Positions 56,867 to 63,526 of a stretch of 64,000 nt of DNA are shown here, one piece after another. The stretch comes from an uncultured Bacteroidales bacterium (lineage in GTDB: Bacteria > Bacteroidota > Bacteroidia > Bacteroidales > FEN-979), in contig CAILVF010000043.1 of assembly GCA_903837605.1 (NCBI GenBank), positions 12,016 through 76,015 of the forward strand. Direction: 5' to 3'. The translations under genes were made by a program, and so were the position numbers. Under the pieces are notes generated by a model. It was not told where the DNA came from. It ran no database searches and saw only the letters and a list, made by a program, of their open reading frames with translations. How positions within the stretch are numbered: the first letter of the stretch is position 1; every line of letters starts with the position of its first letter.

Positions 56867-56929
56867 CACGAGCCATGAGTGATTGGCGAATACTCATGGC
56901 TCCTGCCTCGTGGCTCAGGGCTCATGGCT
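56867..56929. repeat. Composite heptamer element: an AGCCATG-type fragment facing five inverted CATGGCT-type units
   Basis: CGAGCCATGAGT (56869-56880) pairs with ACTCATGGCTC (56892-56902). Units CATGGCT CCTGCCT CGTGGCT CAGGGCT CATGGCT span 56895-56929. Confidence 0.85.
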
Positions 56930-57717
56930 TATCTCTGGGCTGTGTTGTTGTAATAGAAGCTCCTGAAATAGGATTCGGTGAATACCGGGTTGATCTTATG
57001 GTAAAAACTTATAAGGATGCGTGTCTTCTGCCTTATTGTTTCATTCAGGTCGACAAGCCTCCAGAATTCGCGTCCGCCCGTAAACAGGTTCTGAGCGAAC
57101 ACATTGATATCTTCTTCAAGGGAGGCTGTGGAGTATTCCGAAAGGAAACCCTGGTCTATCATTGCGGGATCCAGGGCCATGCTTGCAAGGCCTTTTGAAA
57201 TTGCATCCGCCCCGCCATTTCCATAACTGAAAGAGGAAGGATTGAGCGACAGCCATTTGGTCTTGTCGAAACAGGAAGGGAAATTCCGGATCAGGATACT
57301 GGAGAATTCATGATGAAACACCTGTTCGATATAATCGTCGGTGAACCAGGGATTGTCGGTGTCGTCACAAAGGTAAATTGAATGCTGGTAATTAGTGCCG
57401 CCGTAAGGAAGCCCGTAGAACTTCATTGACTTTAAAACATACACCCTGTCGAGATTGCTGTTAAGCAGGTCAAGAGGGTATTTTGAGAACGCATGGGAAA
57501 GAAGGTCTTCCAGCCTGCCGATCTCTTCTTTACTGACCGGACGTATATCGGGATTGACCTTTTTGCCCGACCATTGATGTGGGAAAATACTAAGTTTGGA
57601 AGGAAAAAGTACTTCCACTCCGCTCCTTTGATCATAATAGCCTGGCTGTGCCTCCACGTCATGGAACAGGCAGAAAATAAGGGGTAGCCAAAGACAATAC
57701 CTATAAAGGAAAGCCAT
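56929..57717 (-). CDS. Secreted hypothetical protein (262 aa)
   Basis: Signal peptide ...LIFCLFHDVEAQ. Contains FHHEFSSIL, which is not a true HExxH. No family recognised. Confidence 0.5.
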   Translation of the reverse strand: MAFLYRYCLWLPLIFCLFHDVEAQPGYYDQRSGVEVLFPSKLSIFPHQWSGKKVNPDIRPVSKEEIGRLEDLLSHAFSKYPLDLLNSNLDRVYVLKSMKFYGLPYGGTNYQHSIYLCDDTDNPWFTDDYIEQVFHHEFSSILIRNFPSCFDKTKWLSLNPSSFSYGNGGADAISKGLASMALDPAMIDQGFLSEYSTASLEEDINVFAQNLFTGGREFWRLVDLNETIRQKTRILISFYHKINPVFTESYFRSFYYNNTAQR

Positions 57718-57872
57718 TGATGCGGTTTTCGACGCACAAAGAAAAGTATGGAGCTGCCCGGTATGGAAGCGGAAATCAGAAAAATATCAACGCGGCATTG
57801 TTAATAACTCTGGTAATTTTGTTGATAAGTTTGCTTTCCAGGTAGTTAGTCTGGCACGGGGGAGTGAAAAAT

Positions 57873-58019
57873 AGTCGGCAGTCGGCAGCCATGAGCCATG
57901 AGCCACGAGCCATGAGCCATGAGCCATGAGGCACGAGCCATGAGGCACGAGCCATGAGGCACGAGCCATGAGGCATGAGCCATGAGGCATGAGCCAACAG
58001 TCACCAGTCCCTAGTCACT
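57873..58019. repeat. Heptamer tandem array, 21 phase-continuous units (147 nt)
   Basis: AGTCGGC x2, then 16 units of AGCCATG/AGCCACG/AGGCACG/AGGCATG/AGCCAAC, then AGTCACC AGTCCCT AGTCACT. The last unit overlaps the aminotransferase stop (58018-58020). Confidence 0.95.
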
Positions 58020-60673: not shown

Positions 60674-60750
60674 GTGACTAGTGACCGGTGACTGGTGACT
60701 GGTGACTGGTGACTGGTGATCGTTCACTGTTCACTATTTACCGTTTACTA
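60674..60750. repeat. Heptamer tandem array, 11 units (GTGACTG core x4, decaying to TTCACTG / TTTACCG)
   Basis: GTGACTA GTGACCG GTGACTG x4 GTGATCG TTCACTG TTCACTA TTTACCG TTTACTA. The last unit contains the hpdB stop (60748-60750). The array fills most of the hpdB-hpdC spacer. Confidence 0.95.
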
Positions 60751-63447
60751 GAGTTCTTCGTACTCCGTTCTTGCAATGACTTCATCCTGTATCTGTTTGC
60801 CGAGTTCGACCCAGTACTGGGTAAAGCCGGCAACACGCACCAGCAGGCTCCGGAACTTATCGGGATCGGCCTGGGCCTGTTTCAGCATCCTTGAATCAAC
60901 GATGTTGAATTGCACATGGAACCCGCCTTTCCGCATATATGAGCGGATCAGCTCGAGGAATTTACGGGAGCCTTCCCGTCCTCTCACGACCGAGGGATGG
61001 ATCTTCATATTCAGCTGGGAATTCTGGGATTGCGAATGGTTCCAGCAGGCTGCCGAGTTGAACAAAGCATATGGGCCATGTTTATCGGTTCCGGGATATG
61101 CCGAAACCGACCCGTCAGAGAACGTTGTTCCCGACAAGCGCCCGTCAGGGGAAGCCAGGGTTACTGCTCCCATAGGGCCGTGGGTCGAAACACTGATCTG
61201 GCAGGCATACATGGGCTGGTCATACAGTGAACGGTAATTATGGGTCATCTCGCAGAACCAGTCCTCCCATTGTTTGAAAATGGCATCTACATACGGATCG
61301 TCATTGCCGAATTTGGGAGCATCCAGGCTCTGGCGGTGTATCTTACGGTATTCGCTGAAATGTTCGGCGGGCTTCTGGTCTACCAGTGAGTAGGAACCTG
61401 TTTCCTGGGCCGTATGATATCCGAAGTTGTCGAGAATGGCTTTGCGGTAATCTTCCAGGCTGAAATTCTTATCGTCGTAAATATTTTTTTTCAGTGAAGC
61501 CAGGGAGTTCACAAGCGTGGTGTTTCCGCAGGATTCAATGTTAAAGGTAGTATTGAACCTTGCACCCATTTGTCCGAGGTCCCTGCCCTTCTCAAGGCAG
61601 TCGGGCTTGAGCATGGAGTTAACCAGCGAAGGGCTGATCTTCCGCCAGGCGTCATGCTGGATGTTGTTTGTAAGGGTAAGTACATGCACCGCCCTGCTGA
61701 AATAATCCATAAAGCCCTGCCAGAGTTCATCATAGGTTTCCAGTTTGTAACCATGGCTGGGGAATATCCTTTCCCCCGTACGCATATCCACCCCATCGAA
61801 GATCACCGTTTCCAGCACTTTGGGAAGCGAGATGAAATGAACTCCGACGCTGGTTGCCGGGGCCGATCCGCCTGGTATCCAGTGGATCTCGCCATCGAGG
61901 TTCAGGGGCATCCAGCTCCCAGGGCTTGATTCAAGACAGCCTCCTATTGCCCAGGCACGCGCTTCTTCAAGCTGCATCCCCTCATGGCCGTAATTGTTCA
62001 GGAGAAACTCCATGGCTACCTGGTTGCTTACCCAGGCAGGGTAACCGGCACCGGCCTTGGTGCATTCTATGCCTTTCAAAAGGAATTCTTCGGGCAGTTT
62101 TTCGTCGTATAGCACCGATAAGGTAGGCTGGGGTGTTTCGCAGCTGATGCCGGTCTCGAGGATCAGCATTTCAAGTTCATTTGCCGCCGAGATACCGTCT
62201 TTTGTAAGCCCGCCGAGAGCGAGATTGTTAAAGGTATTTCCTGATAACACACCTCCTACGACACCCATGGAGGCAAAACAGTCTATCTCGGTGAATTTAA
62301 TACGCATACATTCCAATAACTCTATGCTTTTCGCACGGTCGATGATACCCCGGTCCATATCCCTTTTCCAGAAAGGAAACAAAACCTGGCCTACGCGGCC
62401 GGGGGAAAGCCCCGAGATGGCATCCTCATTAAGAACTCCAACATGGAAAGTCCAGAGCATCTGCAGAGCTTCATGGAAATTGCGGGGGGGATCCGAAGAA
62501 ATATGCTCAAGCATGCCTGCCATTTCGAGGTATTCAGCCTTCTGTTTTTCTTCCTTTTCAACAGAAGCCAGGAACCTCGCTTCTTCAGCGTAATTCCTGA
62601 TCCACGATTTGATGCCCCGGAGCATGATGATCACGGCTTTATAAAAATACAGGCGGTCCATTTCAGGATAACCTGCCACTTCGTTAATTCCTTCTTCGCA
62701 TATCCTGATGATCCCGTCAATACCGTATTGAAGGGGATAGTAATAATTCATGACCTCGCGTCCCTGGGGGAGGGTGTAGCCTGAATCGAACATACAGATG
62801 ACCGAACGCATGATAGCTTCCTTCTCCTTGTAGCCCGGCACCATTTGCTCATATTTATGGCCGATGTCATCCACCGAACGGTCCTTCCATTTCTTGGCAA
62901 CTTCCAGCATCACCGGCATCTCCTCAAGCCTTAAACCGAATTTTCCGGCAATGGAAATTACCTTGCCAACCGATTTGGTTACGTTGCCGCCTCCCTTGCC
63001 CACCGTTGTAAAGGTATCGGCGGTAAGTTTGCCCGATTCAAGGGCTTCCTTGTATAATTTGTCCTCCGAAGCCATGAAAAACGCTTCAGAAAGCCAGGGC
63101 ATAGGGTATGAACTGCGCAGGTATGAGGCCTTTCCCATAGTAAGAAGTTCACCCGGGTATATTACAGGGGTTAAATGCTCGAAGCCCGCCTTCAGGCTTT
63201 CGGCCCTCCTGATTACAGGTATCTCCCCGTCAAGTTCTTCCCAGCGGCGGGTGTACCAGTATGGGAATTCCATAGAGGTCGACGACTTGGCGCTGAAATA
63301 CAGTTCACGGGCCTGGTTTGCCCTTGGGGTCGGTTTGCGGCCTTTCTCACGGTCTTCAACCTGAGGTGAAGGCTTATTCCCGTAATAATTTATCGATTCA
63401 GCCGGGCAGTCTAAAAAATCCGCCGGATTTTCACCCGTATTGCTCAT
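60748..63447 (-). CDS. hpdB: Glycyl-radical enzyme, 4-hydroxyphenylacetate decarboxylase large subunit type
   Basis: 899 aa. Glycyl loop LLVRVAGFTQYW (Gly874). Cys loop AIGGCLESSPG (Cys504, Glu506). His537 and Glu638 are present. Followed by the 8-Cys small subunit and the activase. Confidence 0.8.
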   Translation of the reverse strand: MSNTGENPADFLDCPAESINYYGNKPSPQVEDREKGRKPTPRANQARELYFSAKSSTSMEFPYWYTRRWEELDGEIPVIRRAESLKAGFEHLTPVIYPGELLTMGKASYLRSSYPMPWLSEAFFMASEDKLYKEALESGKLTADTFTTVGKGGGNVTKSVGKVISIAGKFGLRLEEMPVMLEVAKKWKDRSVDDIGHKYEQMVPGYKEKEAIMRSVICMFDSGYTLPQGREVMNYYYPLQYGIDGIIRICEEGINEVAGYPEMDRLYFYKAVIIMLRGIKSWIRNYAEEARFLASVEKEEKQKAEYLEMAGMLEHISSDPPRNFHEALQMLWTFHVGVLNEDAISGLSPGRVGQVLFPFWKRDMDRGIIDRAKSIELLECMRIKFTEIDCFASMGVVGGVLSGNTFNNLALGGLTKDGISAANELEMLILETGISCETPQPTLSVLYDEKLPEEFLLKGIECTKAGAGYPAWVSNQVAMEFLLNNYGHEGMQLEEARAWAIGGCLESSPGSWMPLNLDGEIHWIPGGSAPATSVGVHFISLPKVLETVIFDGVDMRTGERIFPSHGYKLETYDELWQGFMDYFSRAVHVLTLTNNIQHDAWRKISPSLVNSMLKPDCLEKGRDLGQMGARFNTTFNIESCGNTTLVNSLASLKKNIYDDKNFSLEDYRKAILDNFGYHTAQETGSYSLVDQKPAEHFSEYRKIHRQSLDAPKFGNDDPYVDAIFKQWEDWFCEMTHNYRSLYDQPMYACQISVSTHGPMGAVTLASPDGRLSGTTFSDGSVSAYPGTDKHGPYALFNSAACWNHSQSQNSQLNMKIHPSVVRGREGSRKFLELIRSYMRKGGFHVQFNIVDSRMLKQAQADPDKFRSLLVRVAGFTQYWVELGKQIQDEVIARTEYEEL

Positions 63448-63491
63448 ATGCTTATAATTAGATATGCAAAAGTAAGTAAAATTGTATCAGA

Positions 63492-63526
63492 ATTCACTAG
63501 TCACCAGCCACTGGTCACTGGTCACC
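63492..63526. repeat. Heptamer tandem array, 5 units (ATTCACT AGTCACC AGCCACT GGTCACT GGTCACC)
   Basis: Lies between the yqgE stop (63532-63534) and the hpdB start. Its reverse complement matches the GGTGACT array at 60674-60750. Confidence 0.9.

Follow-up and report, generated by a model that had tools for sequence, protein, structure and literature searches.

Tandem arrays of short units that lie between genes have been described in cyanobacteria, Xanthomonas, Nostoc, Beggiatoaceae, and some Bacteroidetes. Here, we analyzed such arrays in a 64,000-nt stretch, termed the window, of a contig of an uncultured Bacteroidales bacterium (GenBank assembly GCA_903837605.1, contig CAILVF010000043.1, positions 12,016 to 76,015), in which arrays of heptamers surround the hpd genes. 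The closest described systems are the following. (i) In Xanthomonas and Nostoc, 89 to 93% of the heptameric repeats are intergenic, at mean distances of 28 nt from the upstream and 160 nt from the downstream open reading frame (ORF); they are found on either strand beside ordinary metabolic genes, mostly between co-directional genes and in 7 to 8% of the cases between divergent genes. The same spacers are occupied in related genomes with highly variable length and sequence, some repeats form inverted stem-loops, polymerase slippage has been proposed, and the authors found no function for them (Rehm et al. 2015, PMC4692102). (ii) The short tandemly repeated repetitive elements of cyanobacteria (STRR sequences) are 7-bp repeats of a few species-specific families, some of them capable of forming hairpins, and occur, for example, between hupS and hupL; the proposed roles are transcript stability, translational coupling, and termination, none of which is proven (PMC2670836). 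(iii) TAACTGA and mixed heptamer direct repeats are intergenic in Beggiatoaceae, Cyanobacteria, and five Bacteroidetes (MacGregor 2015, PMC4679880). Long mixed arrays are present in Gramella, Aequorivita, and Elizabethkingia and absent from relatives with the same gene neighborhood; the units have stop codons in all frames, which limits their location, and most repeats of "Maribeggiatoa" point toward a start codon and end 1 nt before it (PMC4679880). (iv) The "long simple-sequence repeats (SSRs)" of Mrazek et al. 2007, as far as they are summarized in PMC4679880, form the same comparison class.

The arrays of the window probably belong to this STRR/long SSR/heptameric repeat class. Tandem units of 7 and 8 nt, within the 5 to 11 nt of the class and beyond chance, a bias toward non-coding DNA, changes by whole units, and genome-specific unit families were all found. 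A first-pass annotation, made from the letters of the window, had stated that no described system of this kind was known to it, whereas published heptameric intergenic SSRs match it (PMC4692102, PMC2670836, PMC4679880). We favor the reading, with a probability of about 0.75, that the arrays are hypermutable intergenic SSRs, with units of 7 and 8 nt, scattered through the genome of an uncultured freshwater Bacteroidales bacterium. According to this reading, arrays would gain and lose whole units by replication slippage, which is the presumed cause of the copy-number changes observed; their edges would decay by point mutation and their cores would be homogenized. They would fill the only dispensable part of a spacer, which extends from the upstream stop codon to where the promoter or leader of the following gene begins. 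A few unit families would be reused at many loci and whole arrays replaced, possibly by exchange between arrays such as gene conversion. A minority with direct and then inverted units would fold into long hairpins, which may act as 3'-end or terminator-like stem-loops, the clearest candidate being that at 56864-56908 after an ORF of 262 amino acids (262-aa ORF).

The repeats of Xanthomonas and Nostoc have in common with these arrays the 7-nt units, the intergenic share, the proximity to the upstream ORF, and the rarity between divergent genes. They differ in that the units described here are not G-rich and cannot form quadruplexes, that several unrelated families, including 8-nt units, coexist, that the arrays often start exactly with the stop codon, and that the host is an uncultured Bacteroidales lineage. 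STRR sequences, like these arrays, occur in spacers within an operon, also in those that separate the genes for two subunits of the same enzyme; phylum and unit sequences differ, and no link to heterocystous cyanobacteria is implied. The STRR units CCCCAGT, TTGGTCA, and CAACAGT may have an ACTG/CAGT core in common with the GTGAC/ACTGG units found here. The TAACTGA family has no representative in the window, and the arrays adjoin the stop codon of the upstream gene and stay clear of the next start codon, unlike those of "Maribeggiatoa." Particular to these arrays are their anchoring at stop codons, the joint presence of families with 7-nt and with 8-nt units, and a cassette-like replacement that is seen when close relatives are compared. 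A proven regulatory case is that of the phase-variable 7-bp repeats in the promoter/5' untranslated region (UTR) of hmw1 and hmw2 of Haemophilus influenzae, where a copy number changed by slippage tunes expression (PMC2424069, PMC12721329). The genes concerned there encode surface adhesins of a pathogen adapted to its host, and the repeats lie between promoter and start codon, whereas the arrays described here follow stop codons of metabolic and housekeeping genes.

According to Pfam, the genes of the region, all on the minus strand, are AlgH/yqgE, hpdB, hpdC, hpdA, an aminotransferase gene, and the 262-aa ORF, downstream of which are a ferredoxin gene and three genes for 2-oxoacid:ferredoxin oxidoreductase subunits. 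The arrays that accompany them are as follows.

Positions 63492 to 63526, no strand assigned: array of 5 GTCAC-type heptads that follows the yqgE/AlgH stop (63532-63534) by 5 nt and lies upstream of the promoter-like box of hpdB.
Positions 60674 to 60750, no strand assigned: array of 11 heptads that fills the hpdB-hpdC spacer from the hpdB TAG stop (60748-60750).
Positions 57873 to 58019, no strand assigned: array of 21 heptads, from the aminotransferase stop (58018-58020) to the conserved leader of the 262-aa ORF.
Positions 56895 to 56929, minus strand: array of 5 AGCCATG-type heptads in sense-strand reading, whose first base is the third base of the TAA stop of the 262-aa ORF (56929-56931).

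The coordinates, unit readings, and counts of the first-pass annotation were all confirmed by reading of the sequence, Tandem Repeats Finder (TRF), and a direct recount. The 63492-63526 array reads ATTCACT AGTCACC AGCCACT GGTCACT GGTCACC, and that at 60674-60750 reads GTGACTN seven times, followed by TTCACTG, TTCACTA, TTTACCG, and TTTACTA; its core, GGTGACT on the plus strand, is repeated 4 to 5 times and its edges are degenerate. The 21-unit array comprises two AGTCGGC units, units of the AGCCATG/AGGCACG types, and finally AGCCAAC AGTCACC AGTCCCT AGTCACT. Its higher-order period of 14 nt (AGCCATG AGGCACG; 7.4 copies with 95% matches according to TRF) and its degenerate edges (AGTCGGC twice at one end and three AGTCACC-type units at the other) are signatures of slippage. 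The reverse complement of 56895-56929 is AGCCATG AGCCCTG AGCCACG AGGCAGG AGCCATG. It had been proposed that neighboring arrays are inverted copies of a few related unit families, and this was borne out by a repeat search that retrieved three pairs of inverted arms, namely, 56893-56929/57887-57923 (37 nt, 92% complementary), 60674-60712/63487-63525 (39 nt, 82%), and 57978-58020/60672-60714 (43 nt, 77%). The annotation's alignment of the reverse complement of 63499-63526 with (GGTGACT)4 was also exact (23/28, versus 19/28 in direct orientation). A flip of orientation within the hpdB-hpdC array (GTGAA, then GTCAC) was considered and rejected, given that successive units are 1 or 2 substitutions apart; the simplest reading of the GTGAA/GTAAA units beside the hpdB stop is that they form the degenerate edge of a single direct array (TGAACAG and TCACCAG match at 5/7 positions). 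Because these edge units read as part of one degenerate direct array, orientation calls for the GTSAC family are soft, as had been cautioned.

The arrays are not specific to the hpd region. TRF and a period scan detected eight period-7 and 2 to 3 period-8 arrays in the window, compared with 0.4 and 1.0 in shuffled sequences, and almost none with other periods. Those outside the hpd region adjoin housekeeping and other genes. Each array abuts the stop codon of the upstream gene, read in the sense direction of that gene. The stop is often the first triplet of the first unit, as in TAAGCCA TGAGCCC TGAGCCA..., TAGTGAC TAGGGAC TGGTGAC..., and TAACAGT GAACAGT....

Positions 8526 to 8570, plus strand: array of the GTGAC/GTGAA family that opens with the TAA stop of a 1024-aa TMEM260-like transferase gene, upstream of lgt.
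Positions 20751 to 20860, plus strand: about 12 copies of the octamers GATAACTG/GAGAACTG, after the stop of a POTRA/BamA-like gene and upstream of ompH.
Positions 22144 to 22162, plus strand: 2.7 copies of ATGAGCC at the stop of a second ompH gene, in a convergent spacer; of the same family as the AGCCATG arrays.
Positions 45691 to 45724, minus strand: short array of GGGATGC-type heptamers that abuts the stop of an 801-aa E1 dehydrogenase-like gene.
Positions 48155 to 48244, minus strand: about 9 copies of the octamers CTGGATAT/CTGGATAA, with a higher-order period of 16 nt, between the rubrerythrin gene and the 801-aa E1 gene.
Positions 54573 to 54613, minus strand: 4.7 copies of TAAATCG that fill the spacer separating the genes for the beta and gamma subunits of the oxidoreductase.

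Very close relatives, whose loci are designated by L numbers, were retrieved by a metagenome scan with the 262-aa ORF and by exact-protein look-ups, and copy numbers were compared in short-read metagenome assemblies. Nearly all indels between close relatives fall in arrays, which are thus hypermutable. In L123, 99.97% identical over 3,093 nt, the sole indel consists of 24 nt, or three octamers, at 20790-20813. L121 (98.7% identical) differs by two 1-nt indels and one 32-nt indel in the 48155-48244 array, which is shorter by these 4 octamers (48196-48227) in L117, L119, and L121 (97.4 to 98.7% identical). In L117 (97.4%) and L092 (95.7%), all multi-nucleotide indels lie in arrays except for a 124-nt block after the oxidoreductase gamma gene. 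The core unit TCACCAG of the hpdB-hpdC array occurs 4 times in the window and 7 times in L092/L093, a gain of 3 heptamers, and the rest of this spacer differs between the window and L092 by 3 point differences only, just upstream of the hpdC start. The copy-number heterogeneity that the first-pass annotation had anticipated therefore takes the form of whole-unit indels of 21 (3 × 7), 24 (3 × 8), and 32 nt (4 × 8) between relatives that are 95.7 to 99.97% identical. Identical strains from different samples (L001-L005 with L013; L006-L008; L009, L010, and L024) showed no array variation; at about 100% identity, they are uninformative.

Larger changes were observed as well. The 21-unit array is about 78 nt shorter in relatives at 95.7 to 97.4% identity (L092 and L117), and its counterpart in L092 consists of 4 direct GTGAC units, 2 CATGGCT units, and 4 inverted units; the CATGGCT units would therefore have grown from 2 to about 16 copies in the window, with loss of the inverted arm. 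The array after the 262-aa ORF has been swapped as a whole: it is an AGCCATG-family hairpin in the window and a GTGAC-family hairpin in L092/L117, and between the window and L092 the edges of the swap are sharp and fall at the stop codon and the conserved CTAATTATAC block. In L012 (88.6% nucleotide identity; hpdB protein, 98%), a diverged yqgE-hpdB array is present and the hpdB-hpdC array is absent, as it also is in L016. The 54573-54613 array is identical in L092, and the orthologous spacers of other genomes contain other unit families. The block of about 124 nt at 53898-54029, located right after the oxidoreductase gamma stop and missing from L092, L117, and L119 (95.7 to 97.9% identical), contains TAAATCG-like fragments and no clean array.

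To survey arrays of period 7 or 8 more broadly, 91 loci of at most 23 kb each were fetched via hpdB, of which 83, including the window, were nonredundant (1.46 Mb). The nearest hpdB proteins are from uncultured Bacteroidota and Bacteroidales metagenome-assembled genomes (MAGs), many of them from stratified freshwater lakes. An exact look-up of the hpdB protein gave no record, which means that the genome of the window is absent from the collection used. A strict segmentation into homogeneous subarrays was dropped because most degenerate arrays were lost. A number of features emerged from the 165 arrays detected. (i) Arrays are mostly intergenic (147/165; 89%), and their density falls with hpdB identity, from 2.4 per 10 kb at ≥90% to about 1.0 to 1.3 at 78 to 90% and about 0.4 below 78%. 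(ii) They are anchored at stop codons: of the 105 arrays in co-directional spacers, 51 have their beginning no more than 10 nt from the upstream stop and only 18 reach to within 10 nt of the next start, and spacers between divergent genes are depleted of arrays (8 observed versus 21.9 expected; p = 7e-4). Among the 71 stop-abutting arrays, 29 have a first unit that opens with the stop codon, and 22 of the 71 have in-phase stop triplets in later units, compared with a mean of 6.1/71 (8.6%) for each other phase. (iii) Unit families are characteristic of genomes, since 25% of array pairs within a genome are related versus 6.1% between genomes, and 13.5% versus 1.1% match at 14/14 positions. (iv) The hpdB-hpdC spacer, which measures 10 to 20 nt in distant relatives, is filled with an array from the stop onward in most genomes of the clade, and the unit differs in nearly every genome (AAAGCGA, AATGTAC, GAATATC, TGATTGAC, GTAACAGG, AGTTGGTG, ACTAATG, TAGAATA, AGAGTCAC, and others).

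Two further interpretations of the survey were rejected. A general role as a three-frame stop-codon backstop of termination does not apply, as the families AAAGCGA and TAAATCG are devoid of stop codons, and recognition by a single sequence-specific binding protein is unlikely in view of the unrelated families in one genome and their mixed orientation with respect to transcription. Among individual spacers, that between the Mur-ligase and glucosaminidase genes, outside the window, contains long arrays in several relatives (AAAGCGA × 8; TGCRGGA plus TATCTGA), located at 6277-6337 of L001, 4731-4865 of L012, 6384-6437 of L016, and 6481-6565 of L080. Gene callers run the ORF downstream of this spacer through the arrays, and start codons are thus probably mis-annotated there. 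In L028 (12605-12642), the last unit of an ACTAATG-type array 3' of hpdB provides the ATG start of hpdC, and an array is therefore able to reach and create a start codon.

The first-pass annotation held that the 262-aa ORF, the aminotransferase-hpdA-hpdC block, and hpdB are each bracketed by arrays of opposite orientation. Three inverted pairs are indeed present in the window, an outcome with a probability of 1/8 by chance, but the arrangement is not conserved in relatives. L012 has no hpdB-hpdC array. In several relatives, both orientations are found inside one spacer, as direct units, a loop, and inverted units. Each spacer beside the 262-aa ORF is a self-contained hairpin in L001 and L014, and unrelated families are found on its two sides in L017. 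In L092 and L117, both orientations lie in the spacer 5' of this ORF and the GTGAC-family hairpin lies in the spacer 3' of it. The census of array orientation revealed no robust rule: when all pairs of related arrays in different spacers are considered across genomes, 28 are inverted and 21 direct, and with respect to transcription, there are 25 inverted and 17 direct. Adjacent related arrays in different spacers are more often inverted (15 inverted, 5 direct, 3 ambiguous), with a raw p of about 0.04 that is weakened by the fact that several pairs are mutually orthologous and many "arrays" are single arms of composite hairpins; the excess vanishes over all pairs. Selection against direct repeats, through which the DNA between them is deleted, could account for a mild excess of this kind. 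The opposite orientations in the window most likely are a local accident, following from a few related, partly quasi-palindromic families common to neighboring spacers.

It had further been proposed that the inverted arrays recombine and thereby invert the 262-aa ORF, the aminotransferase-hpdA-hpdC block, or hpdB. We consider this idea to be next to negligible in probability. Its premises are the inverted repeats of 37 to 43 nt with 77 to 92% identity on both sides of the blocks and the weak inverted excess among adjacent arrays (15 versus 5). However, all relatives read, at 70% to 99.97% identity, are collinear with the window, and the order and orientation of yqgE, hpdB, hpdC, hpdA, the aminotransferase gene, the 262-aa ORF, and the oxidoreductase genes are unchanged throughout; as a test for invertons, no flanked segment was found in the opposite orientation in the relatives' loci read. 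Pfam scans of the ORFs, together with the annotation of collinear relatives, revealed no invertase, recombinase, integrase, or transposase in the 64-kb window. According to the arm sequences, exact inverted matches extend over only about 11 nt, far below what RecA-dependent exchange requires. In addition, a gene inverted within an operon would be silenced, and the inverted arrangement is itself not conserved.

The second proposal was that the inverted arrays pair at long range in a minus-strand polycistronic transcript and regulate the hpd genes. The candidate duplexes, 63492-63526/60674-60750, 60674-60750/57999-58019, and 57887-57998/56895-56929, have predicted energies of -50.3, -61.9, and -65.1 kcal/mol (z = -8.5, -4.8, and -9.0 versus shuffles), and pairing is thus thermodynamically possible. 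We nevertheless regard programmed long-range pairing as very unlikely, since its partners are not conserved and nothing supports a function: L012 and L016 lack the hpdB-hpdC array, L092 and L117 have an array of another family after the 262-aa ORF, and the families on the two sides of this ORF are unrelated in L017. Translation of the genes in between would oppose pairing across 1 to 2.8 kb, and the array after the 262-aa ORF has a local partner 11 nt away. Moreover, the array between yqgE and hpdB is located upstream of a conserved promoter-like box of hpdB.

Positions 63467 to 63474, minus strand: TACTTTTG box, located 19 nt 5' of the hpdB ATG, which fits TAnnTTTG, the consensus of the -7 promoter element in Bacteroidetes.

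This box is retained in L012, L001, L006, L014, and L015. The motif TAnnTTTG is not enriched over the window (44 found, 43 expected), and only the conserved site before hpdB was used; that it serves as the hpdB promoter is inferred from the published Bacteroidetes consensus. Because the 63492-63526 array lies upstream of this box, it is probably outside the transcript initiated at hpdB, and the label "hpdB leader" given to it by the first-pass annotation was not upheld. In L016, L017, and L080, the yqgE stop is followed by the hpdB ATG within about 10 nt, with no spacer, array, or promoter box; hpdB has a different N terminus in these genomes, and its 5' end and regulation thus differ within the clade.

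Local structure is the subject of a third alternative, namely, that arrays are functional RNA 3'-end elements (terminators, attenuators, or stabilizing/insulating stem-loops) that have stems of direct and inverted heptamers and whose length tunes read-through in operons. We consider this possible, at odds well short of even.

Positions 56864 to 56908, minus strand: local hairpin with arms 56864-56880 and 56892-56908 (17 nt, 94% complementary).

The arms of this hairpin are formed by the last of the AGCCATG units together with CATGGCT units in inverted orientation, about 2.5 in number, and it ends at the conserved block CTAATTATACTTGTTCTAAATTTAACA. Its predicted fold (-30.7 kcal/mol; z = -4.7) is followed by UAAUUAUACUUGUU, with no U run. 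Equivalent hairpins built from other, unrelated unit families were found in 5 of 8 orthologous spacers (z = -3.2 to -6.9), all of them ending at the same promoter-like block. The location of arrays at stop codons is in line with a 3'-end role, as are the hpdB-hpdC spacers of L001 and L017, in which 4 direct units and 4 inverted units are followed by a T run; the hairpins of STRR sequences have likewise been proposed to be transcript stabilizers or terminators (PMC2670836). Other arrays that fold well are those at 8526-8570 (z = -4.5) and 48155-48244 (z = -4.2), and a fold z below -3 was obtained for 17 of 134 array segments versus 5 of 120 control spacers. However, the median z is the same for arrays and array-free spacers (-0.2 versus -0.2), and significant structure is lacking in most arrays, among them the one with 21 units, the one in the hpdB-hpdC spacer, and those at 20751-20860 and 54573-54613. 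Hairpin formation is thus a trait of a minority of the arrays and not of the class. A consensus scan for intrinsic terminators returned 13 sites versus 11.4 expected, none at arrays on the sense strand, and a sigma-70 promoter scan gave counts no higher than in shuffles, again with no sites at arrays on the sense strand. Rfam 15 contained no credible match to 54000-64000 on either strand at E ≤ 1. Arrays are also gained, lost, and resized between close relatives in an unchanged gene order, and a strong terminator between hpdB and hpdC would be odd, as both encode subunits of one enzyme.

The spread of unit families raises the possibility that an active system, mobile or recombinational, disperses the arrays in the manner of the REP/REPIN elements moved by the RAYT transposase. 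In the REP/BIME/REPIN elements of proteobacteria, a defined imperfect palindrome of 20 to 40 nt is mobilized by a RAYT (Y1) transposase. Both the REP elements and the arrays are species specific and extragenic, follow stop codons in operons, form hairpins, alternate in orientation, and turn over quickly. Three further observations would fit such a system, namely, that unit families are shared 4 to 12 times more often within than between genomes, that the hairpin after the 262-aa ORF was replaced wholesale at 95.7% identity with sharp edges at the stop codon and CTAATTATAC, and that arrays have appeared repeatedly and independently at the same spacers. Conversely, neither the 64-kb window nor the relatives' loci read (≤23 kb) encode a transposase, a RAYT (Y1 transposase), or a reverse transcriptase. 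The units are tandem copies of 7 to 8 nt and not a palindrome of 20 to 40 nt, several unrelated families coexist within one genome, and the closest relatives differ by whole-unit indels, as slippage predicts. We therefore judge dispersal by a dedicated mobile system to be improbable.

The interpretation of the arrays as hypermutable SSRs has to be weighed against several observations. (i) Slippage alone does not explain why a genome reuses a given unit family at many of its loci, nor (ii) does it explain the swap of a whole hairpin between genomes that are about 96% identical. (iii) The persistence of a hairpin in 5/8 spacers despite new units looks like selection on structure or a mechanism that maintains palindromes. 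(iv) Adjacent related arrays in different spacers are inverted three times as often as direct (15 versus 5), although the pairs are not independent and the excess vanishes over all pairs. (v) Repeats can be mis-sized in short-read assemblies, a risk that is limited here because the arrays are shorter than the largest k-mer of the assemblers. Family sharing within genomes and hairpin persistence at one spacer together leave some room, on the order of one chance in ten, for an active or selected system. Its most explicit version would be that the arrays are actively maintained, interchangeable, genome-specific cassettes between the stop codon and the next promoter, moved by dedicated recombination or transposition and selected as length-tunable hairpin or insulator elements, which we likewise hold to be unlikely. 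If it were true, the arrays would set read-through within operons such as hpdB-hpdC, and the excess of inverted neighbors would be either a design feature or the footprint of selection against deletion-prone direct repeats.

A number of observations concern the sequences adjacent to the arrays. The 262-aa ORF (56929-57717, minus strand) has only a sub-threshold Pfam match, to Peptidase_Mx1, a family of putative zinc metallopeptidases (E = 6.5e-4; 19.6 bits with a cut-off of 25.6). Its synteny with the hpd and oxidoreductase genes holds across the clade, and the idea that it is a mobile cassette was rejected for this reason. Three conserved non-coding segments were noted. (i) A block of about 150 nt 5' of the 262-aa ORF (57718-57860, minus strand), conserved in the clade (L001, L006, L014-L017, L080, L092, and L114), reads GTGCCAGACTAACTACCTGGAAAGCAAACTTATCAACAAAATT..AGTTATTAACAATGCCGCGTTGATATTTTTC...CTTTTCTTTGTGCGTCGAAAACC and contains the inverted repeat TTATCAAC/GTTGATA; it has no Rfam match and may be a cis-regulatory leader or operator. 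(ii) The spacer between hpdA and the aminotransferase gene (59339-59457, minus strand) is free of arrays and conserved in relatives; a CATGATCTATATCATTG-like palindrome and a TTTTG box in it suggest an internal promoter or operator that is regulated. (iii) The CTAATTATACTTGTTCTAAATTTAACA block and a leader of about 100 nt 5' of the ferredoxin gene (56764-56862 and orthologous spacers) are conserved in all relatives and probably are the promoter and 5' UTR of the oxidoreductase operon; every hairpin array stops exactly at the 5' edge of this block. Tandem repeats with longer periods, unrelated to the heptamers, were found at 9355-9442 (42 nt × 2.1; 91% matches) and, within an ompH gene, at 21435-21490 (24 nt × 2.3).

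The feature is thus placed in a known class, and gene inversion or programmed RNA pairing by bracketing arrays is set aside as unsupported. SSRs with heptamer and octamer units abound in uncultured freshwater Bacteroidales, and their density reaches about 2.4 arrays per 10 kb in the clade nearest to the window. The arrays change faster than point substitutions accumulate and are therefore strain markers; in MAGs, they also probably lead to broken contigs and to spacers of the wrong size. An array, and in some cases a hairpin, persists in orthologous spacers even as its unit sequence is replaced. With many sequenced relatives at graded distances, this lineage could make tractable how heptamer families spread and whether they are functional, a question that dates back to the description of STRR sequences.

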